This document shows, piece after piece, positions 19,270 to 52,030 of a DNA stretch of 64,000 nucleotides. The notes beneath the pieces were generated by a model that had not been told where the DNA came from, did no database searches, and saw only the letters and a list, made by a program, of their open reading frames with translations. Origin of the DNA: Escherichia phage PHB12; the sequence record MK524178.1; one strand, given 5' to 3'. The position numbers and the translations under genes were made by a program. The number at the start of each line of letters is the position of its first letter. Position 1 is the stretch's first letter.

Positions 19270-20434
19270 CGAAATCTTCCATTTCGTCAAGGTCGTTTTC
19301 TATATCTGCTGCAGACGGAGCATCAGAAGTTTTAACTGGAACTTTAGTTGTTGCTTTGCAATTAATAAGGTCGTTAACAGCGTCATCAACTTCTTTAATA
19401 GAAGAGATAGCACCTAGTTTATATTTAGTTTCAATTGCATCTCGGAAAGGTTTGTGTTTAAACAAAGGTCCCCAGAATTCTACACAATCAGTAGCTTTAG
19501 CACGCCATGATTTCTCTTCACGAATCATTTCGCCTGTTTCTTCGTCAAGGAATTCTCGAGCATACCACCCGGCTTTAGGCTTAACTACAAAACCAATTTC
19601 AGTTGCCATTTCTAACAAGCCACTGAATGGGTCAATACCACCATCAAAATTAACCGTGATCGGGAAAGTAGATTTTTCTTTAACGGTTCGAGATTTTTCT
19701 GCTTTCAACGTGAAGTCATAACCGGTCAATTCTGTGCCTTCTTTAACCTGACGTTTAGAGATAAAGAATACAGTGTTAGCAGAGTAAAGAATACCTGTAC
19801 CACCACCCATAATCTCTTTAGGATATAGACCGCCGATTTCCATTGCTGTATGGTTGATTGCAACACATGGAATATCTTTAATAGTCAGATAAGGAGTCAC
19901 AATGCGGAACAGAGATTTAAGTGCCTTAGCACGAGACATATCACCTACGACTTTCTCGTTCAATGCATCTTCGGTTTCTTTCTTAGATGCAGTATTACCA
20001 ATCGAGTCAATAAAGATAATAACTTTATCACCACGTTCAATCGCGTCAAGCTGATTAGTCATATCAACTTTAAGTTGTTCGACAGATTGAATCGGAGTAT
20101 GAACTACACGGTCTAAATCAACACCCATTGAACGAAAATAAGATTCTGAAGCACCAAATTCTGAATCATAGAACAAACAAATTGCATCTTTATATTTCTT
20201 CATATATGCTGCAACCATGGTCAGTCCAAACAACGTTTTAAAGTGTTTAGAAGGAGCAGCAAAAATAGTTAAGCCTGATTGCAACCCAGCATTCAGTGCA
20301 CCACCTAATGCAATATTCAACATCGGAATACGAGTAGGGACTTCATCGCGATTATTAAACAACTTAGACTTAGTCAAGTCTGCAGTCATTTTAGAAGTAG
20401 AAGCTTTAATCAGACGAGATTTTAAATCAGACAT
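19262..20434 (-). CDS. uvsX: UvsX recombinase (RecA/Rad51 family)
   Basis: 390 aa; MSDLKSRLIKASTSK... N-terminus and RecA core match T4 UvsX. Confidence 0.9.
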   Translation of the reverse strand: MSDLKSRLIKASTSKMTADLTKSKLFNNRDEVPTRIPMLNIALGGALNAGLQSGLTIFAAPSKHFKTLFGLTMVAAYMKKYKDAICLFYDSEFGASESYFRSMGVDLDRVVHTPIQSVEQLKVDMTNQLDAIERGDKVIIFIDSIGNTASKKETEDALNEKVVGDMSRAKALKSLFRIVTPYLTIKDIPCVAINHTAMEIGGLYPKEIMGGGTGILYSANTVFFISKRQVKEGTELTGYDFTLKAEKSRTVKEKSTFPITVNFDGGIDPFSGLLEMATEIGFVVKPKAGWYAREFLDEETGEMIREEKSWRAKATDCVEFWGPLFKHKPFRDAIETKYKLGAISSIKEVDDAVNDLINCKATTKVPVKTSDAPSAADIENDLDEMEDFDE

Positions 20435-20533
20435 TGTATTTTTCCATAGGCATCATTATATTTTACTCATGTTTAAAAGATAAGACGATTATATACTAAG
20501 GGTTATACAGCATTTAAAACTTTAAACAGGCTC

Positions 20534-21082
20534 TTAACGAGCCCATTTGATAATTTCTGTAATCAAATTATTACGTTCGCTTGCATTAAATCCTATAACT
20601 TTGTTAGCACCATCATGATTAAGTAATTGATACGTTTGGATTTTGTTATGAATTGCAAACTCTTCAAAATATGAAATGACTGTATTAAAACCAAATGAAG
20701 ACAAAGTAATAAGGTCGTCTTCAAAACTTTCAGTCATTTCGTTACGTGTTAAAATAATTGTGAACACATCATGGTTTTGGCAAAGACGAACATAATCCTG
20801 TTCATAAACGTCAAGAACCGAGTCCACATCTTGTCGAATACGTCCATAAACCCAGTTACTAATATATCCACGGTCTAACAGATAAATCTTAGTAGGGTCT
20901 AAATAATTCAACATCGTTTCGAAACAGCCAACTTCATTTCGAGACTTAACATCGAAACGTCCATCAACTGTTCGTTTAGGGAAATCAATCTTTACATATC
21001 TTTCACTAATTTCCATTATGTCATTAATGAAAGTTGTTTTACCAGCATTATCCGGGCCATCTACTAAAATAATTTTAGCCAT
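20534..21082 (-). CDS. P-loop kinase-like protein (nucleoside/nucleotide or sugar kinase fold)
   Basis: 182 aa; Walker A GPDNAGKTT at residues 9-17; DRGY lid-like motif; not a T4 gene at this position. Confidence 0.5.
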   Translation of the reverse strand: MAKIILVDGPDNAGKTTFINDIMEISERYVKIDFPKRTVDGRFDVKSRNEVGCFETMLNYLDPTKIYLLDRGYISNWVYGRIRQDVDSVLDVYEQDYVRLCQNHDVFTIILTRNEMTESFEDDLITLSSFGFNTVISYFEEFAIHNKIQTYQLLNHDGANKVIGFNASERNNLITEIIKWAR

Positions 21083-21083
21083 T

Positions 21084-21983
21084 TTATTCCTCGATTATGA
21101 CATCTTCGTATTTAGGTATATTATACGGTGAAGAAATTAAAGCATTAAAGTAGATGAACTCACCAAGACCTGGATGGAATACTTCTTCAGGATTTTCGAA
21201 ATATTGAATCTTCGGCCGTCCTTTAAGAATTTGATAGTACTCAGTTTTAGTTGGTTTAAAAATTCGAATCAGTGCTTCTTCAGGATACTTATTTCTGTCG
21301 AAGCTATTATTTGGATCGGTTATATAAAGCGGTTGACCTAATTGAATTGCACATTCAACCACTTGTTCAAAACGATAACACGGGTCACTAATTCGAAATG
21401 GATGAAAAATACCATCTAGATGAATAGGAGCCAAATCACCTACAAGACGCTGCATGATGGAAGGACGTATAACTTTCTGCGTTACGATAATCTTATTACC
21501 ATCTGCACCTGCGTTAACCAGCACTTCTTTTTGACGTTCATTCAACACAGTAGTTTGAAGTGAACGATTAACAGACAACATGTCGGTTTTTAAGAATTCG
21601 TCAATATAAAAACGTGGTTTATTAGAGTCTGCAGTAATATTGAAATTGAATTCTACGTCAAAAGTGCCGTCATATCCAGTGATATCTGTGATTAGAAAAT
21701 CACAATCATAATAATCAATTAATGAATCAACCACAAATTCATTTTCAGACCAGAAATATTTACGAGTGTTATATGCGTTATCTTTATACCATAATGGAAC
21801 AAACTTAAATTCTGGGAAAAGACGTTCACATTCTTTAATATCAGATGCATTACGTGGATATGTAATTACATCACCCGGATTAGCACGGTGCAAATGAAGT
21901 TGGAAGTTGCCATCCTTAAGGATAGCATACTGTCCAGTTTCATAAGACCGCATACTCAAGATAGGTACGCGGAAAATAGCCAT
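21084..21983 (-). CDS. hypothetical protein at the beta-glucosyltransferase position
   Basis: 299 aa; no resemblance by eye to T4 Bgt; tightly packed between P-loop gene and gene 42 homologue. Confidence 0.5.
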   Translation of the reverse strand: MAIFRVPILSMRSYETGQYAILKDGNFQLHLHRANPGDVITYPRNASDIKECERLFPEFKFVPLWYKDNAYNTRKYFWSENEFVVDSLIDYYDCDFLITDITGYDGTFDVEFNFNITADSNKPRFYIDEFLKTDMLSVNRSLQTTVLNERQKEVLVNAGADGNKIIVTQKVIRPSIMQRLVGDLAPIHLDGIFHPFRISDPCYRFEQVVECAIQLGQPLYITDPNNSFDRNKYPEEALIRIFKPTKTEYYQILKGRPKIQYFENPEEVFHPGLGEFIYFNALISSPYNIPKYEDVIIEE

Positions 21984-22699
21984 TAGTCAAGGAATCCTTT
22001 AACATAATCAAAATCACGTTCAAACACATGGGCACTTACCATGGTATGAGTATAATCACCAACTTCTACACCACATTCGTTAGCGATATAATGAAGTAAT
22101 TTTCCTTGGAGATAAAAATCCAACTGCATAACAACAGCACAGTTCTGAGAACGCATATGACAGTGGGTATAAAGCTTACCATCACGAATATAATAAGTCA
22201 CTGAGTCAGTACATGGATATTCAAGTGTTTCATCCGAATCAAGCAAAGCCTGATCTGAACTTTCAAGAATTTGAAACACAACTCTTCGTGAATTAGGTTT
22301 CTCTTTAAGTTCTTTTAGAAGAGTTGGTAACTGGGCCGCAATGCGAGGACCATAGAAAGTGTTGAAGTTCGCAGGCAAAGCATCTGATTTTGGTTTAGAA
22401 ATAAATTTAGCGACGTTAGGATATGCCTTAAATGCTTCTTCTGCATCAGTACCACCAGAAATCATAAATTTCCAGAAATCTTCAGCATATTCATAAGAGA
22501 TGCGATTAATACGTGGGTCGGTCATTTTGAATGATGAAGGGGTATCAACAACTACTGTCATAGACCCAATTTCATTACAACGTCCAATACGAGAGTCAGT
22601 AACGAACTGTGGATTTTCTAAAATTTCACGATTGACAGCTTTAAATGCGGATTGAAAATCTGCGGCTTTAATATATTTCATTGTGTTATGTTTTCCCAT
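21983..22699 (-). CDS. 42: thymidylate-synthase-fold pyrimidine C5 hydroxymethylase (gene 42-like, divergent)
   Basis: 238 aa; catalytic-Cys block YPCTDSVTYYIRDGK...HMRSQN parallels T4 gp42 FMCTNTVQYLIRD...NMRSND. Confidence 0.6.
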   Translation of the reverse strand: MGKHNTMKYIKAADFQSAFKAVNREILENPQFVTDSRIGRCNEIGSMTVVVDTPSSFKMTDPRINRISYEYAEDFWKFMISGGTDAEEAFKAYPNVAKFISKPKSDALPANFNTFYGPRIAAQLPTLLKELKEKPNSRRVVFQILESSDQALLDSDETLEYPCTDSVTYYIRDGKLYTHCHMRSQNCAVVMQLDFYLQGKLLHYIANECGVEVGDYTHTMVSAHVFERDFDYVKGFLD

Positions 22700-22978
22700 G
22701 TTTACCTCAATACAGTTATTATATACTCAATTCATAAAAGCTTATTTGAATTTCTTAGCGATGTTGATATAACGTAAAGCTTCAGCATCGATACTTCCAA
22801 GAACACTATGAAGAAATGCATCAGCGTAGTATTCTAGTTGAACAGGTTTCTTTAATCACTTTAGCCGCTTTAGTTTCAAACAGGCCCATAAGGGCCTTTT
22901 TAAGAATTTGTTCGTTGCTGTTAATTTTCATAGTCAAAATCTCTTCATTAAGTTGGTGGTTAAAAGTTTTTCTAGAAA

Positions 22979-24139
22979 TCATTCCGGGTACCTCAAAGCG
23001 TCATCAGAGTTAGTTATATCAATAATAGATATAGAGTTTTCTGCTAACCCATTTTTAGATAACTGACGTTTATAATATCTTTCACAATATGTACACGTCG
23101 TCCCGCAGATTTCATTAGCACAATCGAAATCTGGATGTCTGAACCACCTTTTTTCTAAAAAGCCATCTAACAAAGAGGTTTCAATATTTACTGTATGTGA
23201 AAACTCGGTTTCGTTTTCAAGAGTGAAAATAGTCTCTAAAGGCTTCCACAATTCCAACAAATTACCTTCAAATTTTTCAGAAGCATAAGCTTCAAGAACT
23301 TTCAAAATGTAGTCTGTGCTACCTGTACGTCCTGAAACTTTGAATTGAGTGATACCAATATCATTATAAAGTTTCAAATCTTGAGGACGAACAAAACGAG
23401 TTCTCAACCAGTTAAATGGGTCTGTATCACGAGCTTTAATACAGTGTTGCATTGGATATCCATTTAAGGATTTGGCATCATCTACTGTAACGTCGGTGCT
23501 ATGGAAAATATAGCAAGAGTCACGATAGCTACAATGTGTTGTATACCCTTTACCAGCATTAGAACAGAACTCATTTACAAGAACTTCAAATATTATATTG
23601 TTCTTATTACAAAACTCTGCTGCGCGTTTCAGGAAAGAAACTGAACGGTTCTTATGAATTCCACAGCAGACCTTTTTGATATTATATTGGTCATGCAAAT
23701 ATTTGATTTGAGTTACAGCATCAACATGTAGAATTGTTGAAACTTCAATCTCAATGTCTTTATTGACTTCACGAACAATTTCCATAACAACAGGGTTAGC
23801 GATAGTAATACGCCATACGCCTATTGACCAAAGATACTGAACATAATCCTGAATAGCTTTCTTCTTCCACTCAACTAGTTCTCTTTTTGAACCAGGATTT
23901 ATCGTGTTGAGTGTATAGTTAAAGCAAATACCTAATTCGTTACAACGTTTAACATAATCTTCTAACATCTTTTTGTCAACGTCAGGAAGCCTAAAATCAG
24001 GTCTGGCTGCTACAAAAGCCATTTCTCTTGTAGAGCCGTATACTTCGTTTATCAAGCTATTAGGATAAGTTTTATTGAGCTCTACGATTTTATCAAGAAG
24101 AGCTAAATCAAAATTCGTTCCGATTTTAAAGGTATTCAT
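22979..24139 (-). CDS. cysteine-cluster enzyme-like protein, unknown function
   Basis: 386 aa, 14 Cys including C-terminal CANEICGTTCTYC (C-x3-C-x3-C-x2-C); possible Fe-S or Zn site. Confidence 0.5.
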   Translation of the reverse strand: MNTFKIGTNFDLALLDKIVELNKTYPNSLINEVYGSTREMAFVAARPDFRLPDVDKKMLEDYVKRCNELGICFNYTLNTINPGSKRELVEWKKKAIQDYVQYLWSIGVWRITIANPVVMEIVREVNKDIEIEVSTILHVDAVTQIKYLHDQYNIKKVCCGIHKNRSVSFLKRAAEFCNKNNIIFEVLVNEFCSNAGKGYTTHCSYRDSCYIFHSTDVTVDDAKSLNGYPMQHCIKARDTDPFNWLRTRFVRPQDLKLYNDIGITQFKVSGRTGSTDYILKVLEAYASEKFEGNLLELWKPLETIFTLENETEFSHTVNIETSLLDGFLEKRWFRHPDFDCANEICGTTCTYCERYYKRQLSKNGLAENSISIIDITNSDDALRYPE

Positions 24140-24193
24140 TTTTGCATCTCGCGTTAATTGTTGCGATGGTTTTTGCAGGTCTTACTTAAATTA

Positions 24194-24595
24194 TTATAGA
24201 TTCGGTTTATATGATTTAAATGTTTCGAATTCGCCTTTATTCATAAGAGCTTTGAATTCGTCAGGACGCATAGCTTTGTCGTCGATAATCCAATCATATA
24301 CTGGTTTATGTGTTAGCAAATTATGGTACTTCAATCCAATGTTTGCCAAGTTCTGAATCAGACTTGGGAGAATGTCAATTGCTATACGACCAGGACCGAC
24401 TGACTTCATACCGCGAGCAGTGTAAAGAGTTATTGTATGCCCTGCATCATACAGGGCATTAATGGCAGACACCATTTCGACGTCTGGTTTGAAGTTCACG
24501 TAATCACGATTGTTATTCCACTCTGTTATACAATCATCGACATCAAAACAAAGATTAAGCATGTTTTCTACACGGTGCATTAGATTCGTTCCCAT
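24194..24595 (-). CDS. HAD-superfamily phosphatase-like protein
   Basis: 133 aa; motif I FDVDDCIT and motif II TLYTARG. Confidence 0.5.
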   Translation of the reverse strand: MGTNLMHRVENMLNLCFDVDDCITEWNNNRDYVNFKPDVEMVSAINALYDAGHTITLYTARGMKSVGPGRIAIDILPSLIQNLANIGLKYHNLLTHKPVYDWIIDDKAMRPDEFKALMNKGEFETFKSYKPNL

Positions 24596-26265
24596 TGATG
24601 AGTGATATCGCCACCGATTGGACGATAGGAAACACCAGTTTCTTTATCAGTTAGTACCCATTTACCAGGATTTTTTGTAATCAGAGTAGCCGTTACAGGT
24701 TCTGCTACGTCATAACTAATAGAGCCGTCTTGAAGTACACGGCCCATGTTACGTAATTGCTTAGTCAGAAGTTCCATACCTTTATAATATGCGGCTACCG
24801 CTTTAAGTGGATTATTCTTGAAATAACCACCTAATGCAATCCAGATAATTGCTACAGCCAAATGATGATATTCATTAAACGAACTCATCTTTCCATATTT
24901 GTAAACTAATGGATTGATGTTAATAGTCACATTACAAGTTGTTTCATCAATAGTAAACTGTCCCCAGGTCGGATTAGCGTTGAATTCATCATAACCTGAA
25001 ACAGCATAAAGCACTTTAGCTTCATCGTACAATTTTGGCCCATAAATCTTGGTTTCGCCAAAATATCCACGAGGGTCGATAAACTTAACTTCGCCGTTAT
25101 CAGTAATCATAGTATTACTGAAGTTCGGGTCACCATGAATAACAGAGTACTGTCCCTGAGAACGATTATGATAACGAATAAGGTGTTCTAAAGCTTGTTT
25201 CAGCATTGGCTTCAGACGTCCAATCTTAGTGTAGTTCACATGTGTGATTTTACCAAATGAATCAATCAATGGTTGAATGCTTTCACAACGATCAATAACT
25301 TTCGTATAGAATTCTTTAGTGAAATCACGACGAACAGTTTCAGGACTTACAAAATAAGTGTCTGTGCTGAATTTCAGTGCATCTAAAATTGCATCAACAA
25401 TTTGTGGACGAGCAAGACTCGATTTGGATTTAATATATTCAAATGCCGGCTTACCTTTAATGCGTTCCATTTCAAAGTTATTTTCATTAACAGAAACTAA
25501 CTGAGGAACTGAATCTGATTTCACTTTAAGATACCATGAAATCTCATCTTTCTGAAGAGCTCGGCCCTGTTCGGTTAATGCGAATTTAGTTACAGTTTCT
25601 TCACCAATTTCAACTGCATTAAAACTACGATTAAGTTCACGAACTTCATGAGCTTTTTCAAGTTTAGGCATATCACCTAAATCAATTAGATTCATAAGCT
25701 CTGATTTATTGAATGCGCTGCCGTAAAGGAATTCTACGAAATCACGTCCTTTGCAGTATTCATGAATTTCCTCATCAGTAGAACCCATATAGAATTCCCA
25801 GTCTTTGAACTGATAAATTCCTACAACATTACCACCTGTTGAACCTACGTTAGTGATATTTTCACCGTCGAAATTATATCGACATTCGTCACCCTTAACA
25901 TAGATTGCGTTAACATTCCAAGACCATGAGCCAAAATCAGGAATAATATCACACCAGTTAACAATTACATTATGGCCGTCTAAATCTTTGTGTAATTTAG
26001 CAAGAGCATAAGCAGAACCATACGCTTCATCAACTGTACGAATAGTCACATTGAACCCTTCTTGCTCACAATAAGCTCGAACAGTTTCAGCAAATTTTGA
26101 ATGAACTACTACAATAATTTCATCTGCGCCAAGGTCAGAATAAATTGTATACAAATTGCTCAGAATAGTGTCTTGTTTATAGTTAACAAGCACCTTAGGA
26201 ATATGATGCGTTATTGGATACAAACGAGTTGCCAGTCCAGCACCAAGAATAACAGCTTTTTTCAT
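24580..26265 (-). CDS. bifunctional sugar-1-phosphate nucleotidyltransferase / APH-like sugar kinase
   Basis: 561 aa; N-terminal ILGAGLATRL (NTP-transferase G-x-G-x-R) and C-terminal HGDPNFSNTM...IDPRG (kinase catalytic/DFG-like). Confidence 0.65.
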   Translation of the reverse strand: MKKAVILGAGLATRLYPITHHIPKVLVNYKQDTILSNLYTIYSDLGADEIIVVVHSKFAETVRAYCEQEGFNVTIRTVDEAYGSAYALAKLHKDLDGHNVIVNWCDIIPDFGSWSWNVNAIYVKGDECRYNFDGENITNVGSTGGNVVGIYQFKDWEFYMGSTDEEIHEYCKGRDFVEFLYGSAFNKSELMNLIDLGDMPKLEKAHEVRELNRSFNAVEIGEETVTKFALTEQGRALQKDEISWYLKVKSDSVPQLVSVNENNFEMERIKGKPAFEYIKSKSSLARPQIVDAILDALKFSTDTYFVSPETVRRDFTKEFYTKVIDRCESIQPLIDSFGKITHVNYTKIGRLKPMLKQALEHLIRYHNRSQGQYSVIHGDPNFSNTMITDNGEVKFIDPRGYFGETKIYGPKLYDEAKVLYAVSGYDEFNANPTWGQFTIDETTCNVTININPLVYKYGKMSSFNEYHHLAVAIIWIALGGYFKNNPLKAVAAYYKGMELLTKQLRNMGRVLQDGSISYDVAEPVTATLITKNPGKWVLTDKETGVSYRPIGGDITHQWERI

Positions 26266-26306
26266 GTTGTGGTCCTCATTGGTAAGTAGGAGTATTGTAC
26301 ACTATT

Positions 26307-26450
26307 CTAGTTAAAGCATTCATACTTTGCTTGTAGTCCAATCATAATCCATCCGATTATAAGAGTCGGAATCATTACTGGAGCCGTTAAGCTCCAGTAG
26401 ATAGTCATGACAAGCATCAATAGTAAAAGTCCTATTGTTATTGCTTTCAT
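26307..26450 (-). CDS. small hydrophobic ORF coupled to isomerase gene
   Basis: 47 aa MKAITIGLLLLMLVMTIYW...; ATG overlaps stop of 26447..27082 (ATGA). Confidence 0.3.
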   Translation of the reverse strand: MKAITIGLLLLMLVMTIYWSLTAPVMIPTLIIGWIMIGLQAKYECFN

Positions 26451-27082
26451 TGTTCGCCTCGTAACATGGCACCTAGTGCACCGCCAGGGTGGAACTTAAG
26501 GAAGTCATTAGAGGTAAATCCACGTTCAGACGAAAGGTTGATAGCAAACGTATCGATAAGCGCTAACAACAATGTAGTGGACATGGTCGGAGCCAGAGAA
26601 TTCTCATCGACCTCTACTGCGATGCCTGTACAGAACGTATAATCAAAAAGAGCTTCGTATTCTTGTGGAATGTCTGGGTTACAATGCAACAGAATCTGTT
26701 TGACGTTCGGACGAATCATTTTAAGATGCTTAGCCACGCCTATCATTTCTTCAGTTTTACCGGAACGACTAATATGAATCAACACATCATTAGGCGCAAT
26801 GAATCCTGCATCACCGTGAGAATAATGCCCAGTGTTCAAGTACATACTCGGGATACCGAGTGAAGCAAATGTCTCAGAAGCTTTAGTTGCAATATTAGCA
26901 TTCTTACCAACACCTGTAATAATTACTCGGCTTTCATAATTACTAAGTCCAGGGCGTCGAAGAGTTTCTAGAATAGCATTATAACGAGCAGGGTTTTGAC
27001 TAATTACTTTGGCCATAGCGGCCAAAGAAGAAGCTTGTTTTATGATTGCGTCAATAGCGATAGTAATAGGAGTAGTTTTCAT
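26447..27082 (-). CDS. SIS-domain sugar-phosphate isomerase (KdsD/GutQ/GmhA-like)
   Basis: 211 aa; VIITGVGKNANIATKASETFASLGIPS and SRSGKTEE resemble SIS phosphosugar-binding motifs. Confidence 0.65.
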   Translation of the reverse strand: MKTTPITIAIDAIIKQASSLAAMAKVISQNPARYNAILETLRRPGLSNYESRVIITGVGKNANIATKASETFASLGIPSMYLNTGHYSHGDAGFIAPNDVLIHISRSGKTEEMIGVAKHLKMIRPNVKQILLHCNPDIPQEYEALFDYTFCTGIAVEVDENSLAPTMSTTLLLALIDTFAINLSSERGFTSNDFLKFHPGGALGAMLRGEQ

Positions 27083-27122
27083 ATTTCTCTCATTTAATTA
27101 GTTTGCCGTCAATGTCATTATA

Positions 27123-29834
27123 TCAAAAATCGAACATATCGAACAGAGATGCTTTCTTCTCGTAATCGAGTTTCGCTGCTGATGTGAATCCTTCAAGTGG
27201 TTTAATAAATGTCTTCTCAAGGAGAACAGTGTAGTCCATCCAATGAAGTACGTCGTCTTTAATTAAATCTGTGATTTCAGTGCCAGAAGGCCATGCGATA
27301 CATTTATCACCGAATGGGTTTCCTTCACGTAAAGGCAGAACATATACTTTTTCACCTTCTACAACTTGTGGTGCATCGATATTACCTTTGATAGCCCGGT
27401 TATACGTCAGAATTCCACGAATATGGAATGGGCATTTGGGACCAGGGAATCCACCTACGTCATATTTAGCAATGTTATTCGCAGAAGATACCGACGCGAT
27501 GCTAATATAATTCAATTGACGGAATTCTTTTTCAAACTCTTTAAAATATTCTTGTAATGATTCTTCACCTTCTTGAAGCATACGACGAATACATTCTTTA
27601 AGAGCTTTCTGTACTGCTTTAGGAGTCGAAGATTTCTGAGTCTCTAGACCCATGATTTTGAGTTTAGGCTCAGCGTAACGAGTACCTTCCATATCCCACA
27701 CGTTTAATGCATAACGTTTCTTACCAGTCCAGAATCCACCAATACCTTTAGAACCTAATGGAGGCCCAGCGATAGCTTCTCGGTCCATGAACATTAAGTG
27801 TTGTTTATTGTTCATGTATTCACACATTTCACGGAAACCTCTATCAATAGCTGGTTCCATACGTTCACGTGCAAACTTATCTAAGAAGTCTACCCAATGG
27901 TTGGTATCACGGAATTTAGATTCACCAACCTTATCGATAATTTTATCAGCAGATACGTAAATAGAGTCTGTATCACCATAAAGAACGAAAGCTTCACCTT
28001 CTGTACCACAAACTTCATTCAGATATTCATTAACTTTACGTTCAATCCACTGTAAAGCCATTTGACCAAATGTTGTGATTGCAGTAGCATTACGCAAATC
28101 ATAATAACGGAACCAAACGTTTCCAAGTGCACCATAAAGTGAGTTGATAAGCAATTTACGGTTAATTTGAGCAGTCATACCTGCAACTTCAGTACGTTGA
28201 GCTCTAAACAACATTTCATTAAGAGATTTAGCAGACAACTTTTTAATCTTTTCTTTAATCTCATCACTGAAGTCGAAACGATAATCAACATCTAATGGTT
28301 CGTCAACAGAAAGATTAGGATTATGCAATGCCTCTTTAATTATTTCACCATTACGTTGAGCTGCAAGCATGTAACCTTTATGTTCTTTACGTTGATTAAA
28401 GACCTTAGTGATTTCAGTTGGAACTACACCATCACGGTCTTTATAATACATCATGCCGTTAGGAGAGCAACTGTACACATCTGAAGGACGTTCAGCAACA
28501 GCGTTAATATAATCATGCAATGGAGCTACTTTAAACGTTCCTGCTATTGTTTCTGGGCTAATATTCACTTGGCGAATAATACTTGGATACAGAGATGTAA
28601 GGTCGAAACTCATTACATATTTGTATCGATTCGGAATAGGTTCCTTAACAAAAGCGCCGGGATAAGGTTGAACCGGGTGAGAACGACCTTGTGGAATCAC
28701 CTTGTTCTGCTCTTTAAGGCTATTAAAAATAATAGCATCCCATGTTTTAATTGGACTAAACACAGATTGAATCTGTATCTTAGCATAATAACCCATGTCC
28801 AAACTCAAGTTGATGAACTGACGCTTAGCATCAATTTGCAATACACGGTACACGTCGATAATGTTATAAGAAATATATCGTTGGTGATTGCTTTCACGAA
28901 GCTTAGAAATAGGGCCGTCATATTTCAGTTTACCAACGTTCAATTCAAATTCTGAAATGTAATCCAGAGAATATGATGGTTGATTGGTAAAAGAGAATTT
29001 TTTGTAAAGGTCAATGTAATCAAGAACAGAGATACCGAACAATGTAATGATTTCACGAGAACCATACATGTTTTCGATAACTTTAACACGAGTTTTACGA
29101 TGTGGTGATAAACGTTTCGCAGTAGATTCGCCAAAAATATTCTTGATTCGGTTATACACATACGGAATATCAAATGACTCAACGTTCCATCCAGTCAAAA
29201 TGACAGGAGTTTTCTGTTGCCAGAAGTTGAGATATTCCATCAACAATTCTTTTTCGTTATCGAACGGCATATAAATGATTTTATCGATAATTTCAGATGG
29301 AACTTCATCACCACCTTGTTCTTGAAGCTTAGCAGCGATTTCAATAGACCATTCTTCTACATTACCATATGGAGAATTCAATAGATCAAATACATAGAAC
29401 CTGTCGTCAATTGAGTCATAATGGGTGATAGCATCAATCGGATGTTTTGCTTGTGACGGCTCAGGGAACCCATCCGGAGATGTTACTTCGATGTCGAAGT
29501 TAGCCACACGAATTTTTGTATGGTCATATTTGATTTCATAGTTATAAGTGTCAGACAAATACGCCAATTTGAAATCGTCCATGCCAAGTGCTTCAAGTCC
29601 GATATCTTCCATGCGTTTAATCCATTGGGAGGCATCACGCATATTGGCGAACAACTTACGAGTACACGGCTTACCGTAGATATCGAAATATTTCGTAGCC
29701 TGACTTTCTGGGCAATGAGCAAACAGTGATGGTTTATATTCTACTTCACGAGTACGTTCACGGCCATTAGAATCGATGTAACGTTCAAAAATTGAATCAC
29801 CAATCTGTTCAACCGTTAAGTAAAATTCTTTCAT
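27123..29834 (-). CDS. 43: DNA polymerase (family B)
   Basis: 903 aa; MKEFYLTVEQIGDSIFERYIDSNGRERTREV...; exo motifs FDIE and YNIIDV, pol motifs DLTSLYPS and YGDTDS; matches RB69 gp43 from memory. Confidence 0.97.
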   Translation of the reverse strand: MKEFYLTVEQIGDSIFERYIDSNGRERTREVEYKPSLFAHCPESQATKYFDIYGKPCTRKLFANMRDASQWIKRMEDIGLEALGMDDFKLAYLSDTYNYEIKYDHTKIRVANFDIEVTSPDGFPEPSQAKHPIDAITHYDSIDDRFYVFDLLNSPYGNVEEWSIEIAAKLQEQGGDEVPSEIIDKIIYMPFDNEKELLMEYLNFWQQKTPVILTGWNVESFDIPYVYNRIKNIFGESTAKRLSPHRKTRVKVIENMYGSREIITLFGISVLDYIDLYKKFSFTNQPSYSLDYISEFELNVGKLKYDGPISKLRESNHQRYISYNIIDVYRVLQIDAKRQFINLSLDMGYYAKIQIQSVFSPIKTWDAIIFNSLKEQNKVIPQGRSHPVQPYPGAFVKEPIPNRYKYVMSFDLTSLYPSIIRQVNISPETIAGTFKVAPLHDYINAVAERPSDVYSCSPNGMMYYKDRDGVVPTEITKVFNQRKEHKGYMLAAQRNGEIIKEALHNPNLSVDEPLDVDYRFDFSDEIKEKIKKLSAKSLNEMLFRAQRTEVAGMTAQINRKLLINSLYGALGNVWFRYYDLRNATAITTFGQMALQWIERKVNEYLNEVCGTEGEAFVLYGDTDSIYVSADKIIDKVGESKFRDTNHWVDFLDKFARERMEPAIDRGFREMCEYMNNKQHLMFMDREAIAGPPLGSKGIGGFWTGKKRYALNVWDMEGTRYAEPKLKIMGLETQKSSTPKAVQKALKECIRRMLQEGEESLQEYFKEFEKEFRQLNYISIASVSSANNIAKYDVGGFPGPKCPFHIRGILTYNRAIKGNIDAPQVVEGEKVYVLPLREGNPFGDKCIAWPSGTEITDLIKDDVLHWMDYTVLLEKTFIKPLEGFTSAAKLDYEKKASLFDMFDF

Positions 29835-41274: not shown

Positions 41275-41745
41275 TTAATCATGTTTCCACACCCCATCGG
41301 TATTTGACCAAAGTCGCTGATTATCTGATCCTCGCCACAGTTTTTTGGTCGGAAAATTTTTCTCATACTTCCCATCAATAATAACATCAACATATTTAAG
41401 CATTTCTAGTTGTTTAATATCTTCAAACTTATATCCTGTCCACAACCAAATGCTTTTATTGGGATAAAGATTTTTTACTGTTTGAGCAATGCAATGAACA
41501 ACATCTCTGTTATCAGGATAGAGAGGGTCTCCTCCAGTTATAGTTAATCCTTCTATATAATCATTATTCAAACATTCAATTAATTGTTCTAGCGTTTCAT
41601 CCGTGAATGGAATACCATTTCTAGCATTCCATGTTGATTTATTATAACACCCTTCACATTTATGCAAACAACCTGTAACGAAAAGAACGACCCTGCATCC
41701 AGGGCCATTCACAAAATCGCAGGGATAAAATCTATCATAATTCAT
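41275..41745 (-). CDS. nrdG: anaerobic ribonucleotide reductase activating protein (radical SAM)
   Basis: 156 aa; CLHKCEGC (C-x3-C-x2-C) near N-terminus. Confidence 0.9.
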   Translation of the reverse strand: MNYDRFYPCDFVNGPGCRVVLFVTGCLHKCEGCYNKSTWNARNGIPFTDETLEQLIECLNNDYIEGLTITGGDPLYPDNRDVVHCIAQTVKNLYPNKSIWLWTGYKFEDIKQLEMLKYVDVIIDGKYEKNFPTKKLWRGSDNQRLWSNTDGVWKHD

Positions 41746-46686: not shown

Positions 46687-47616
46687 TTATGATTTTAATG
46701 CATTCATTGCATTAAAAAGTTTAGAGTATTGCAACTGGAGTTTGGTAACTACTTGTTGAGCATCACGAAGCTTAGCTTGTGCTTTGTCAAGTTCAACAGA
46801 CAGTTGGTCCACAGTGGCTTTGATTTGATTATAATAGTAATCTTCGGCAGGAAGAAGACCGTTAGAGATTTCCAGTTTAGTCGACGGTGTGCCGTTAAAC
46901 ATAACAGGTTGTGCTGAAGCTGCATTAATCTTACCGATAGTCGGGGCGACAATAATTGACGCTTCGAACGTTGCATTTTCCTTTTTAAGATTTTGATAGT
47001 ATTCAGAGTCTTTGTGCCACCATGGCGCAGGAACCTTTTTACCAATAGATACACGAGCCTGGATAGCGATATGGCCCTTATTCTTGATAACGTCGATAAT
47101 ATTAAGCTCACGAGAATAAATTGCTTTAATCTGGTGGATATTATCACCTAACACTTCCAACGCTTGGTGGAATACACGAGCAACGTTATCATTCTTAGGT
47201 TTATACGTAAGAGTGAACTCGTTCTCACTGATAACCATGATTTCTAACTTATCGTAAGTATATTTCAAATGTTTCATGTTAATTGCTTGAGGACGAATAC
47301 GAGAAGCAATGGCCATCAGATTGTTAAGGTTATTCCGGAACTGCTTAGCGAAATATTGTCCTTCACCGCCAATACAAAAATTACGAAGTTTCTGTTTGGC
47401 TAATAAACGGCTGAACTCACCATTTTTAATGAACTCTTTAACGGGTGTGTTAGTAACGCATTCAAATTGAGTAAACTTACGAGAAGTAATCCCATAATAT
47501 GAACAGATTTCCTCAATCTCTTCAGGAGTCTTTACAGGCATACGGATAGGATTAGGACCTGGGGTATATGCGTTAGAGGTAAATTCTTTGATAAGTTCTC
47601 TACGTGTAATAGCCAT
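46687..47616 (-). CDS. hypothetical protein with C-terminal coiled coil
   Basis: 309 aa; near-identical promoter copy upstream. Confidence 0.5.
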   Translation of the reverse strand: MAITRRELIKEFTSNAYTPGPNPIRMPVKTPEEIEEICSYYGITSRKFTQFECVTNTPVKEFIKNGEFSRLLAKQKLRNFCIGGEGQYFAKQFRNNLNNLMAIASRIRPQAINMKHLKYTYDKLEIMVISENEFTLTYKPKNDNVARVFHQALEVLGDNIHQIKAIYSRELNIIDVIKNKGHIAIQARVSIGKKVPAPWWHKDSEYYQNLKKENATFEASIIVAPTIGKINAASAQPVMFNGTPSTKLEISNGLLPAEDYYYNQIKATVDQLSVELDKAQAKLRDAQQVVTKLQLQYSKLFNAMNALKS

Positions 47617-51040: not shown

Positions 51041-52030
51041 TCATTTATAGTACGAATTGTGGTTTTCTAAGTAGACTTGCTCAAGGAAATCATCCCAGAA
51101 ACTCATATCTACTTTTTGTTGCATACCGTTCTTGGCAGCTTGTTCTGATGCTTGTTCAACTTTGTCAACGATATCTTCTAGGAATTCTTGTACAGTTTTA
51201 AACGTATGTTTACCAAGCTTAACATCTAGAATAAATGGAGCATCCCGAAGTGGGTAAACCAGGTCGCCGGTTTTATAAATTTCTAATAGTTGAAGTCCAC
51301 CACGACATGCATGACTCAATGCTTTCCAGTCAATACCTTCGTTAGCTTCTGCCTTACGAGCACGTTCGCCATAGTTCTCTTCCAGTTTAACCAGGATGGC
51401 ATTGAACTCTTTATTGGTTAATGTGTCTTGGAATTTACGGTCTAACAGATTATAGAACGTTTGCTTACCTGTTTTCTCGTTTTCGGTTTCAACCCACGAA
51501 GCAAATTCACCTACGGGCAGAACATTCTTCATATGTGATAAACGAATTACTGCACCATTATCAAAGTATTGTCCCCATTCGTTAGAACGTTTAAGGGCTT
51601 GTCGAAGAACAGCCAGTCGAGAACCCTTGACACCATATTTAGAAGCTTGCTTACGGACATACCCTAAATAAGATTTCATGTTAGTAGTATAGAAACGAGA
51701 CCTGTTGTCTTGAATATACTTCCACACGTCAGGCAAATCAGATTTAACTACTAGACTTTGCGGAGTGTGAAGCATATCTAATGCGACAGTTTCACCATCC
51801 ATAGCTAGTTTAAAGAAATATTTGAGACTATACAACTCGTGGTCCACGTCGTCTTTTGTGTTCTTAGAAGATGTGTTATTCGTGTTCTTGCTCATGTGTT
51901 CTTTAACGTTACCAGTCAAGATATCACGAGCATGAGGGACATAAATTTCTTTAAAATCGACGTCAGATTCAGGAGTAGACGTTCCATAAAGGTGACTACC
52001 AAAGTAGCCTTTCATAATTGTTTTCATCAT
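51041..52030 (-). CDS. Pol-beta-superfamily nucleotidyltransferase, unknown substrate
   Basis: 329 aa; N-terminal GSHLYGTSTPESDVDF (G-S...D-x-D). Confidence 0.5.
   Translation of the reverse strand: MMKTIMKGYFGSHLYGTSTPESDVDFKEIYVPHARDILTGNVKEHMSKNTNNTSSKNTKDDVDHELYSLKYFFKLAMDGETVALDMLHTPQSLVVKSDLPDVWKYIQDNRSRFYTTNMKSYLGYVRKQASKYGVKGSRLAVLRQALKRSNEWGQYFDNGAVIRLSHMKNVLPVGEFASWVETENEKTGKQTFYNLLDRKFQDTLTNKEFNAILVKLEENYGERARKAEANEGIDWKALSHACRGGLQLLEIYKTGDLVYPLRDAPFILDVKLGKHTFKTVQEFLEDIVDKVEQASEQAAKNGMQQKVDMSFWDDFLEQVYLENHNSYYK

Follow-up and report, generated by a model that had tools for sequence, protein, structure and literature searches.

Escherichia phage PHB12 is a T4-like phage of the genus Mosigvirus, and the 64,000-nucleotide stretch of it analysed here (sequence record MK524178.1; this whole stretch is called the window) carries a gene for a cysteine-rich protein of the U32 family, whose likely function is the subject of this report. 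The gene sits in a DNA-modification island, with uvsX on one side and the DNA polymerase gene on the other. Over positions 20400-27200, identity is 98.5% with Escherichia phage F2 and 97.8-98.4% with many RB69-like phages. The protein itself shares 99.2% identity with RB69 ORF050c (gp50), the name used below, and 100% with a protein of phage ST0. The 386-residue open reading frame (ORF) that a first-pass annotation of the window had placed at 22979-24139 is borne out, on the minus strand and with an ATG start. That annotation had also reported no counterpart in T4. A U32 homolog is present in 221 phage records, every one at 80% identity or more, and consistent with that report, T4 is absent among the matches listed.

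A second ATG lies upstream at 24147 and corresponds to the annotated start of the RB69 protein (MQKMNTFK). The run of A residues between the two ATG codons is five long in PHB12 and six in RB69, and the upstream ATG is out of frame in PHB12, so that translation must begin at 24139. This A-run (24139-24147, minus strand) is the second homopolymer length difference at the U32 gene, the first being in the homolog of RB69 ORF049c described below. Promoter and terminator matches were at chance level, with 25 found and 27 expected.

Fold, conserved cysteines and putative metal sites

The protein contains 13 cysteines (residues 66, 72, 158, 159, 177, 192, 203, 209, 233, 340, 345, 349, and 352), one fewer than the fourteen counted in the first-pass annotation, and their clustering is far from chance. 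Ten of them (C158, C177, C192, C203, C209, C233, C340, C345, C349, and C352) are invariant or 98% conserved among 120 homologs with identities down to 48%. Compared with other Straboviridae orthologs, the gene has a dN/dS of 0.03-0.07, which corresponds to strong purifying selection. The cysteine invariance and the low dN/dS together identify the ORF as a conserved, functional gene.

The family that had been guessed by eye, a U32-peptidase-like protein, turned out to be the right one. PF01136 (Peptidase U32) matches residues 94-286 with 42.4 bits against a cutoff of 22.4 (E 6.3e-11), and the domain is carried by all listed homologs except three. A fold search, which had been suggested as a check, returned the U32 TIM barrel of the solved protein Mk0906 from Methanopyrus kandleri (PDB 5d88; 11-14% identity with gp50, 247 residues), which is without the C-terminal four-cysteine extension of gp50. 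When PDB sequences were searched with the single sequence and with a profile, no U32 structure was found and the matches were chance ones only (IraP, a kinase, and BIM1).

Ligand positions were mapped by an hhalign profile-profile alignment of the family with E. coli RlhA, TrhP, UbiU, and UbiV (probability 95.9%, E 2.6e-9, 286 columns). In this alignment, E185, C203, C209, and C233 of gp50 fall on E161, C169, C176, and C196 of RlhA, with the string C-Y-I-(S/F)-H in common. The core motif region of gp50 (residues 185-233) consists of E185, a 10-residue insertion with invariant N189-E190-F191-C192, the segment C203-SYRDS-C209-YIFHS, P229, and C233. The canonical RlhA ligands are residues 169, 176, 192, and 196, and the place of C192, the third of them, is taken by the invariant P229; C203, C209, and C233 thus retain three of the four positions of a putative [4Fe-4S] site. 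One of C158, C177, and C192 probably completes the predicted cluster. Displaced ligand sets are also found in UbiU (169, 176, 193, and 232) and UbiV (39, 180, 193, and 197), the E. coli sets being those of PMC5727448 and PMC10990095. In RlhA, C169 and C176 are essential, an E161A variant is nearly inactive, and the separate C-terminal cysteines C580 and C611 are essential as well (PMC5727448).

The cysteine block noticed at the C-terminus in the first-pass annotation was found as CANEICGTTCTYC, residues 340-352, a segment predicted with a pLDDT (per-residue model confidence) of 85-92. It is a putative second four-cysteine metal site, which may hold Zn or a second iron-sulfur (Fe-S) cluster. 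The earlier guess of an Fe-S or zinc site thus appears right, judging from the conserved ligand positions in the barrel and from this block. The alternative guess of a radical enzyme is not supported as far as radical SAM proteins are concerned. PF04055 gives no match, and the CX3CX2C-like string C345-x3-C349-x2-C352 lies outside the barrel, in the C-terminal extension that follows it; the fourth invariant cysteine, C340, would complete the ligation, although an aromatic residue precedes the last cysteine as in the radical SAM motif. The acidic tail behind the block (residues 363-386) is kept in Straboviridae copies (DDATRYPE in Enterobacter phage Entb_45) and missing from metagenomic homologs of about 360 residues, and may be a candidate docking motif for a phage partner.

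Similarity to the named U32 enzymes is below threshold throughout. The UbiU model NF047963 of NCBIfam scores 19.4 bits against a cutoff of 440 (E 4.8e-4). The TrhP model NF011996 (cutoff 534 bits) does not match gp50 and gives only 11.7-11.8 bits with its distant relatives P0038 and P0108. Neither DUF3656 nor the NCBIfam RlhA model matches the 386-residue gp50, RlhA having 653 residues. Because of these sub-threshold similarities, gp50 is best regarded as a member of a distinct U32 subfamily and not as an ortholog of a named enzyme.

The modification island and the genes that accompany U32

The island encodes a known pathway (Table 1). The modified base of RB69 DNA is beta-D-Araf-(1-3)-alpha-D-Araf-5-hydroxy-2'-deoxycytidine (Araf, arabinofuranose) and not arabinosyl-hydroxymethylcytosine (Lee et al., NAR 2026, PMC13326640). 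Its hydroxyl group is installed by gp48, a homolog of thymidylate synthase (TS) that hydroxylates deoxycytidine monophosphate (dCMP), binds flavin mononucleotide (FMN), and takes its oxygen from 18O2; gp48 and the kinase are sufficient in E. coli, and every step of the pathway has already been assigned to an enzyme (PMC13326640). The homolog from phage HY126 was reconstituted in vitro by He et al. (Nat Chem Biol 2026), who confirmed O2 as the source, as cited in PMC13326640. Both substitutions diagnostic of a 5-hydroxy-dCMP (5hodCMP) synthase, L143E and D169N, are present in the PHB12 TS homolog. The arabinosyltransferase (299 residues) and the kinase/pyrophosphorylase (561 residues) are whole in PHB12 and split into ORF046c/047c and ORF052c/053c in the RB69 record, which fits the sequencing errors that PMC13326640 points out. 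In that paper gp50 appears in a table only, labeled 'Sugar or heterocycle reductase' because of its match to the 5d88 fold, and the text is silent on it; earlier papers list it under 'homologs among peptidases' or leave it unmentioned.

The first-pass annotation had supposed that the protein might do additional chemistry on the sugar or base. The solved structure of the base leaves nothing over for such chemistry, each step having its enzyme (PMC13326640). Instead of an extra step, the evidence points to an alternative, O2-independent way of carrying out one already known, C5 hydroxylation.

Chorismate mutase, the enzyme that produces prephenate, is a recurrent neighbor of U32 in related phages. 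Directly after U32, and overlapping its stop codon (ATGA), Enterobacter phage Entb_45 has a gene for a 79-residue type II chorismate mutase (PF01817; 40.9 bits, cutoff 27). The interval between U32 and the TS homolog holds a chorismate mutase gene in 51 phage records, from phages whose hosts are Klebsiella, Serratia, Yersinia, Enterobacter, Edwardsiella, Erwinia, Pectobacterium, Escherichia, Shewanella, Providencia, Morganella, and Kosakonia. The phage enzymes keep the catalytic residues R11, R28, K39, E52, S84, and Q88. A use of these enzymes in making Cx-SAM (CmoA/CmoX-type, PMC12783734) was considered and rejected, as no CmoA or CmoB homolog was found in any island.

A second line of evidence comes from a large metagenomic clade of U32 proteins of about 360 residues with 44-58% identity. 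The set of distant loci comprises 40, each covering about 10 kb on either side of U32. In seven of the 40 (L033, L035, L036, L037, L055, L021, and L006), which are viral contigs from anaerobic habitats, U32 adjoins a gene for 3-deoxy-D-arabino-heptulosonate 7-phosphate (DAHP) synthase; an eighth locus carries a free-standing chorismate mutase. The DAHP synthase continues at its C-terminus into a type II chorismate mutase in at least five loci (all five aligned), as in the 340-residue protein at L033:8411-9433; the chorismate mutase domain of a representative fusion scores 71.8 bits (E 5e-20). Free-standing chorismate mutases and DAHP synthase fusions are thus two independent protein architectures that put an enzyme of the prephenate pathway beside U32. 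In the fused domain, the position of E52 in EcCM is occupied by an aromatic or other hydrophobic residue and R51 is kept. Shikimate-pathway auxiliary genes of this DAHP synthase kind seem undescribed in phages. These DAHP_synth_1 neighbors were also considered as KDO8P synthases, which use arabinose-5-phosphate; this was rejected, the scores being 237 and 134 bits with the DAHP synthase models and 63 and 47 with those of KDO8P synthase.

Other neighbors also recur in the distant loci. A gene for a GT46-like transferase, a homolog of DNA arabinosyltransferase 1, is found near U32 in 15 of the 40, directly upstream and often overlapping the U32 start. AfhE homologs occur in 14, SIS isomerases and HAD phosphatases in 12 each, Tmk-like kinases in nine, dCMP deaminases in seven, and dUTPases and DnaE-type polymerases in six each. 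Although these usual partners are present, a search with a TS profile detected a TS of the 5hodCMP-synthase type in none of the 40 within about 10 kb of U32, and the sole TS in the set (L023) is of the ordinary ThyA type with L143, D169, and N177. Some loci have no sugar genes and carry deoxynucleotide enzymes only. The one constant theme across the distant loci is pyrimidine deoxynucleotide metabolism. Genome bins with the family are those of anaerobes and include Erysipelotrichales, Oscillospiraceae, Romboutsia, Gastranaerophilaceae, Tannerella, Phocaeicola faecalis, and Woesearchaeota, among others.

Two kinds of distant locus depart from the common layout. On a 466-kb JGI contig that encodes DnaE (L003:7447-9086), U32 is coupled by overlap to a dCMP deaminase gene, with Tmk and UDG-like genes close by and a glycosyltransferase gene missing from the surroundings, which hints at a hydroxylated uracil or cytosine base without a sugar. 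A Clostridia-like contig with a dockerin GH43 protein (L004:8001-15428; also L005 and L053) has two U32 paralogs in one locus, together with genes for a radical SAM/SPASM protein, an AlaRS-like protein, NT5C, an NMN transporter, a deoxynucleoside kinase, and a nucleoside 2-deoxyribosyltransferase, and could be a nucleoside-modification or salvage island.

Comparison of gene orders shows where U32 enters the close islands. The order is SIS-AfhE-HAD-TS-GT-Tmk (GT, glycosyltransferase) in Acinetobacter phage DLP2 and AfhE-HAD-Tmk-TS-GT in the E. coli Dhakavirus Bp7, both without U32, and SIS-AfhE-HAD-[U32-ORF049c]-TS-GT-Tmk in the RB69 type. AfhE homologs are present in 368 phage records, of which 57 are from Acinetobacter phages; none of the U32 matches listed is from Acinetobacter, and U32 is missing in DLP2, which was inspected. 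Acinetobacter hosts are strict aerobes. From the gene orders and the AfhE and U32 record counts, U32 and its partner gene form an optional cassette, placed exactly between the HAD and TS genes.

The partner gene, ORF049c, begins at the U32 stop codon (Table 1) and is found in 162 records. Its PHB12 homolog is frameshifted by an extra A at 22847-22849 (AAA in place of AA), which leaves a 53-residue product (22821..22982) and the conserved tail in another frame. A short megablast search against GenBank phages showed that at least 18 Mosigvirus genomes have this allele, among them that of HY126, on which the Afh pathway was defined. Because so many Mosigvirus genomes share it, the frameshift is a recurrent natural allele and ORF049c is dispensable, at least in the laboratory. 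Exact-pattern scans of IMG/VR for the frameshift were uninformative, that collection being dereplicated. We also considered ORF049c as a diverged chorismate mutase and rejected this: it has no Pfam (PF01817) or NCBIfam match and no BLASTP alignment, and the hhalign probability is 0.75%. The two genes stand side by side in Yersinia, Pectobacterium, and Serratia 92A1 phages, in the order U32-ORF049-CM-TS (CM, chorismate mutase). In Escherichia phage EcS1 (L016:11158-11502) and Serratia phage CHI14 (L017:11158-11502), U32 is followed by a 114-residue ORF with an ORF049c-like N-terminus (MRRINH.MNE) and then a chorismate mutase domain, which suggests a fusion of the two genes in these phages or else a wrongly called start. 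Klebsiella phage Marfa (L008, 9299-11918), whose U32 protein is 89% identical, has neither ORF049c nor chorismate mutase after U32 and a Tmk-like kinase gene just upstream of it, and is a third arrangement of the cassette.

Outside the island, the window encodes the anaerobic ribonucleotide reductase NrdD and, next to it, an ORF in the position of the NrdG activase (Table 1); T4-like phages pair the aerobic NrdAB with the anaerobic NrdDG. With NrdD and the adjacent ORF, the phage is equipped for an O2-free supply of DNA precursors. The window also encodes a 309-residue DUF7235 protein (E 6e-112) at 46687-47616 and a 329-residue RlaP-like nucleotidyltransferase (RNA repair pathway, pol-beta family) at 51041-52030, both on the minus strand and in the company of several unannotated ORFs of about 310-330 residues.

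Table 1. Coordinates of gp50, its predicted segments, and other genes of the PHB12 window
Feature	Position	Strand	Basis or remark
U32-family Fe-S protein (predicted function), 386 aa, RB69 ORF050c/gp50 ortholog	22979..24139	minus	ATG start
Core U32 motif region, residues 185-233, putative [4Fe-4S] site	23441..23587	minus	Alignment to RlhA and invariance
C-terminal block C340-x4-C345-x3-C349-x2-C352 (CANEICGTTCTYC), residues 340-352	23084..23122	minus	Four cysteines and G346 invariant in 120 homologs
Acidic low-confidence C-terminal tail, residues 363-386, ending DDALRYPE	22982..23053	minus	pLDDT 57-75
RB69 ORF049c homolog (79 aa in RB69)	22742..22982	minus	Start overlaps U32 stop (ATGA); DNA alignment with RB69
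Tmk-like nucleotide kinase, RB69 gp45 ortholog	20534..21082	minus	PHROG 761 match; PMC13326640 Table 1
DNA arabinosyltransferase 1, RB69 gp46:47 ortholog, intact 299 aa	21084..21983	minus	PMC13326640 Table 1
Thymidylate-synthase homolog, 5-hydroxy-dCMP synthase, RB69 gp48 ortholog	21983..22699	minus	PF00303; L143E and D169N
HAD phosphatase, RB69 gp51, AfhF-type	24194..24595	minus	Arabinose-1,5-bisphosphate to arabinose-1-phosphate, PMC13326640
Bifunctional arabinose-5-P kinase and UDP-arabinose pyrophosphorylase, RB69 gp52:53, AfhE-type, intact 561 aa	24580..26265	minus	
Arabinose-5-phosphate isomerase, SIS domain, RB69 gp55 ortholog	26447..27082	minus	
DNA polymerase	27123..29834	minus	
NrdD, anaerobic ribonucleotide reductase, 605 aa	41742..43559	minus	PF13597 E 8e-172 and Gly_radical domain
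156-aa ORF in NrdG activase position	41275..41745	minus	NrdG assignment by position only

A candidate cytosine hydroxylase and the alternatives

The U32 proteins characterised so far point to a reaction that would fit the island. Formation of 5-hydroxycytidine at C2501 of 23S rRNA requires RlhA, and that of 5-hydroxyuridine at position 34 of tRNA requires TrhP. Each depends on prephenate, for each Fe-S clusters have been implicated, and the TrhP route is O2-free (PMC5727448, PMC6599085). UbiU and UbiV take over from the flavin/O2 hydroxylases UbiI, UbiH, and UbiF under anoxic conditions, with prephenate as the oxygen donor (PMC10990095). The reaction that the island needs is, by analogy, exactly the one known from characterised members of the family, which carry it out without O2.

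Each of these systems resembles gp50 in some respects and departs from it in others. RlhA (YdcP) shares with it the U32 TIM barrel, the aligned glutamate and cysteine positions, the string CYI(S/F)H(A/S), and separate conserved cysteines near the C-terminus, and its chemistry, C5 hydroxylation of cytosine, is that proposed for gp50. In contrast to the 653-residue RlhA with its RNA-associated DUF3656 domain, gp50 is much shorter, lacks DUF3656, and has the motif insertion and the proline at the third ligand; the C-terminal cysteines of RlhA (572, 580, 611, and 614) are spaced differently, and its substrate is rRNA, whereas that of gp50 is presumably a deoxynucleotide or DNA. TrhP (YegQ) and TrhO follow the logic suggested here for gp50 and gp48, in that a prephenate-dependent U32 enzyme and an unrelated O2-dependent enzyme make one C5-hydroxypyrimidine and so serve a facultative anaerobe (PMC6599085). 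TrhO, however, is a rhodanese, whereas the O2-using counterpart of gp50 would be a flavin-dependent TS homolog acting on DNA precursors, and the redundancy in the phage is inferred. UbiU and UbiV resemble the proposed enzyme in their small-molecule substrate and displaced Fe-S ligands, UbiU being the best, though weak, NCBIfam similarity; they differ in forming a heterodimer that works with the lipid carrier UbiT on a prenylphenol, whereas gp50 seems to stand alone besides the coupled small ORF049c. The 5hodCMP synthases (RB69 gp48, DLP3 gp80, and the HY126 enzyme) would share with gp50 the product 5hodCMP as well as the pathway, island, kinases, and arabinosyltransferases (PMC13326640). They are unrelated to it in fold, cofactor, and oxygen source, and the role of gp48 is experimentally proven, that of gp50 predicted.

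On this basis we infer, with slight preference over all other readings taken together, that gp50 is an O2-independent, prephenate-dependent cytosine C5 hydroxylase. It would hydroxylate C5 of cytosine without molecular oxygen, using prephenate as co-substrate and oxygen donor. The substrate would probably be dCMP and less probably cytosine already in DNA; dCMP is favored because the protein is compact and without nucleic-acid-binding domains, the neighbors are kinases, deaminases, and dUTPase, and the pathway runs before replication. The product would be the same 5-hydroxycytosine (5hoC) that the FMN/O2-dependent TS homolog makes in air, and the base would then be phosphorylated, incorporated, and arabinosylated. 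An O2-free route would be needed because the only known 5hoC-forming enzyme of these phages uses O2, yet the window encodes NrdD. RB69-like phages would thereby reach one hypermodified base by a pair of routes, an aerobic and an anaerobic one, as E. coli does with TrhO and TrhP for tRNA 5-hydroxyuridine and with UbiI/H/F and UbiU/V for ubiquinone, and in phages of strict anaerobes the gp50-type enzyme would be the only 5hoC route. The PHB12 phage, having no chorismate mutase of its own in the window, would need host prephenate, which would come from PheA and TyrA. A more far-reaching version seems to us evenly balanced between right and wrong: that gp50 is the first U32 enzyme on a DNA precursor, a soluble, stand-alone, prephenate-dependent hydroxylase of dCMP or DNA cytosine at C5, with two unrelated hydroxylases in RB69-like phages and U32 alone in strict-anaerobe phages. 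Both the gene and its assignment to the U32 family were already known; the apparent recruitment of a U32 hydroxylase to DNA-precursor modification would be new, and the searchable literature holds no statement linking gp50 to prephenate-dependent hydroxylation, to an association with chorismate mutase or DAHP synthase, or to a TS-less clade in phages of anaerobes.

Several observations weigh against the hydroxylase assignment. The strict U32 signature PROSITE PS01276 (E-x-F-x2-G-[SA]-[LIVM]-C-x4-G-x-C-x-[LIVM]-S) is unmatched, as the insertion NEFCSNAGKG parts the glutamate from the first cysteine and the next cysteine follows after x5 and not x6. The canonical ligand spacing C-x6-C-x15-C-x3-C is likewise unmatched (x5, the 10-residue insertion, and proline at the third ligand), and the NCBIfam scores to UbiU and TrhP lie far under their cutoffs. 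A profile search of the six-frame translation found no chorismate mutase in the PHB12 window (best E 0.057), and Mosigviruses are likewise without one. U32 co-occurs with sugar-activation genes, so that context alone allows a sugar-related role. The distant loci cover about 10 kb per side, and the genomes they belong to could have a TS-type hydroxylase farther away. E. coli Dhakaviruses (Bp7) have the TS homolog and arabinose genes and no U32, so that not every phage of a facultative anaerobe needs U32, and the correlation with hosts rests on few independent events, because the gene's presence or absence tracks the phage lineage. In vitro hydroxylation has yet to be demonstrated for any U32 protein (PMC10990095), and the accessible literature contains no biochemical or genetic test of gp50, which He et al. 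2026 (Nat Chem Biol, HY126) may address.

Among the alternatives, a place in the sugar branch, as a reductase, isomerase, or other step in UDP-arabinose biosynthesis or tailoring, is unlikely. It agrees with the label 'Sugar or heterocycle reductase' in Table 1 of PMC13326640, with the GenBank annotation of Bas phage AlbertHofmann ('putative enzyme involved in UDP-arabinose biosynthesis'), with the position of U32 between the HAD phosphatase gene and the rest of the island, and with the operon GT-SIS-AfhE-HAD-U32, U32 last, in 12-14 of the 40 distant loci. However, arabinose-5-phosphate is converted to D-arabinofuranose without a redox step, the published three-enzyme route is complete, and the Araf in DNA is unmodified. 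Acinetobacter phages and Dhakaviruses make or encode the pathway without U32, and several distant loci have U32 without sugar activation, in the arrangement Tmk-GT-U32-DnaE or with dCMP deaminase, deoxynucleoside kinase, NT5C, and deoxyribosyltransferase only. The recurrent chorismate mutase and DAHP synthase genes would be left unexplained. We know of no U32 member that acts on a sugar. The chorismate mutase association would be equally unaccounted for if gp50 were an electron-transfer or flavin-reducing partner that feeds reduced FMN to gp48 and is not a hydroxylase itself, which we consider quite unlikely. It is true that gp48 needs reduced flavin and has no phage reductase assigned to it, that the U32 protein probably bears one or two Fe-S or other metal sites, and that one small gene separates the two; but gp48 and the kinase are enough in E. 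coli, phages with a gp48 homolog and no U32 exist, all 40 distant loci have U32 without a 5hodCMP-synthase-type TS nearby, and no flavin- or NAD(P)H-binding domain was found in the U32 protein.

A hydroxylase of host or phage RNA (5-hydroxyuridine at tRNA position 34 or 5-hydroxycytidine in rRNA), tuning translation in infection from an incidental place in the island, would keep the chemistry and change the substrate. RNAs are the sole known nucleic-acid substrates of U32 proteins (PMC5727448, PMC6599085), and phages do carry tRNA-modification genes (PMC12783734). We nevertheless rate it very unlikely: gp50 is without the DUF3656 of RlhA and the C-terminal part of TrhP and falls far under their NCBIfam cutoffs, close and distant copies alike are embedded in, and often translationally coupled to, genes for deoxynucleotide metabolism and DNA glycosylation, and E. 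coli already owns TrhP and RlhA. That gp50 is a true peptidase or collagenase, as database records have it ('peptidase', 'putative protease', 'collagenase') and as the reported collagenolytic activity of PrtC and HP0169 would allow (PMC5727448), is extremely unlikely. No catalytic mechanism or active-site residues have been defined for U32 'peptidases', and each genetically characterised member is a hydroxylation factor (PMC10990095); the phage protein has no signal peptide or virion context, and its constant partners are nucleotide and sugar-nucleotide enzymes.

What an anaerobic route would mean for phage DNA

Arabinosyl-5-hydroxycytosine is a shield against restriction enzymes and CRISPR in a large group of enterobacterial phages, and many phages of this group are candidates for therapy. 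They live in the gut and have anaerobic nucleotide reductases, but no route to the hydroxyl group of this base is known that works without O2, a gap that an O2-independent hydroxylase would close. If gp50 is the prephenate-dependent hydroxylase proposed here, it would explain how the DNA of such phages is protected in the anoxic gut and would allow hypermodified DNA across the whole oxygen range of that habitat. The protection would then be predicted to depend on oxygen, on host iron, and on the status of the aromatic pathway. It would also give a reason for the chorismate mutase and DAHP synthase genes of phages, with host aromatic metabolism redirected to supply an oxygen atom. The oxygen-donor chemistry of prephenate, so far known from genetics only for RNA and ubiquinone, would extend to DNA, and a small enzyme with a simple nucleotide substrate could allow the first in vitro reconstitution of U32/prephenate hydroxylation.

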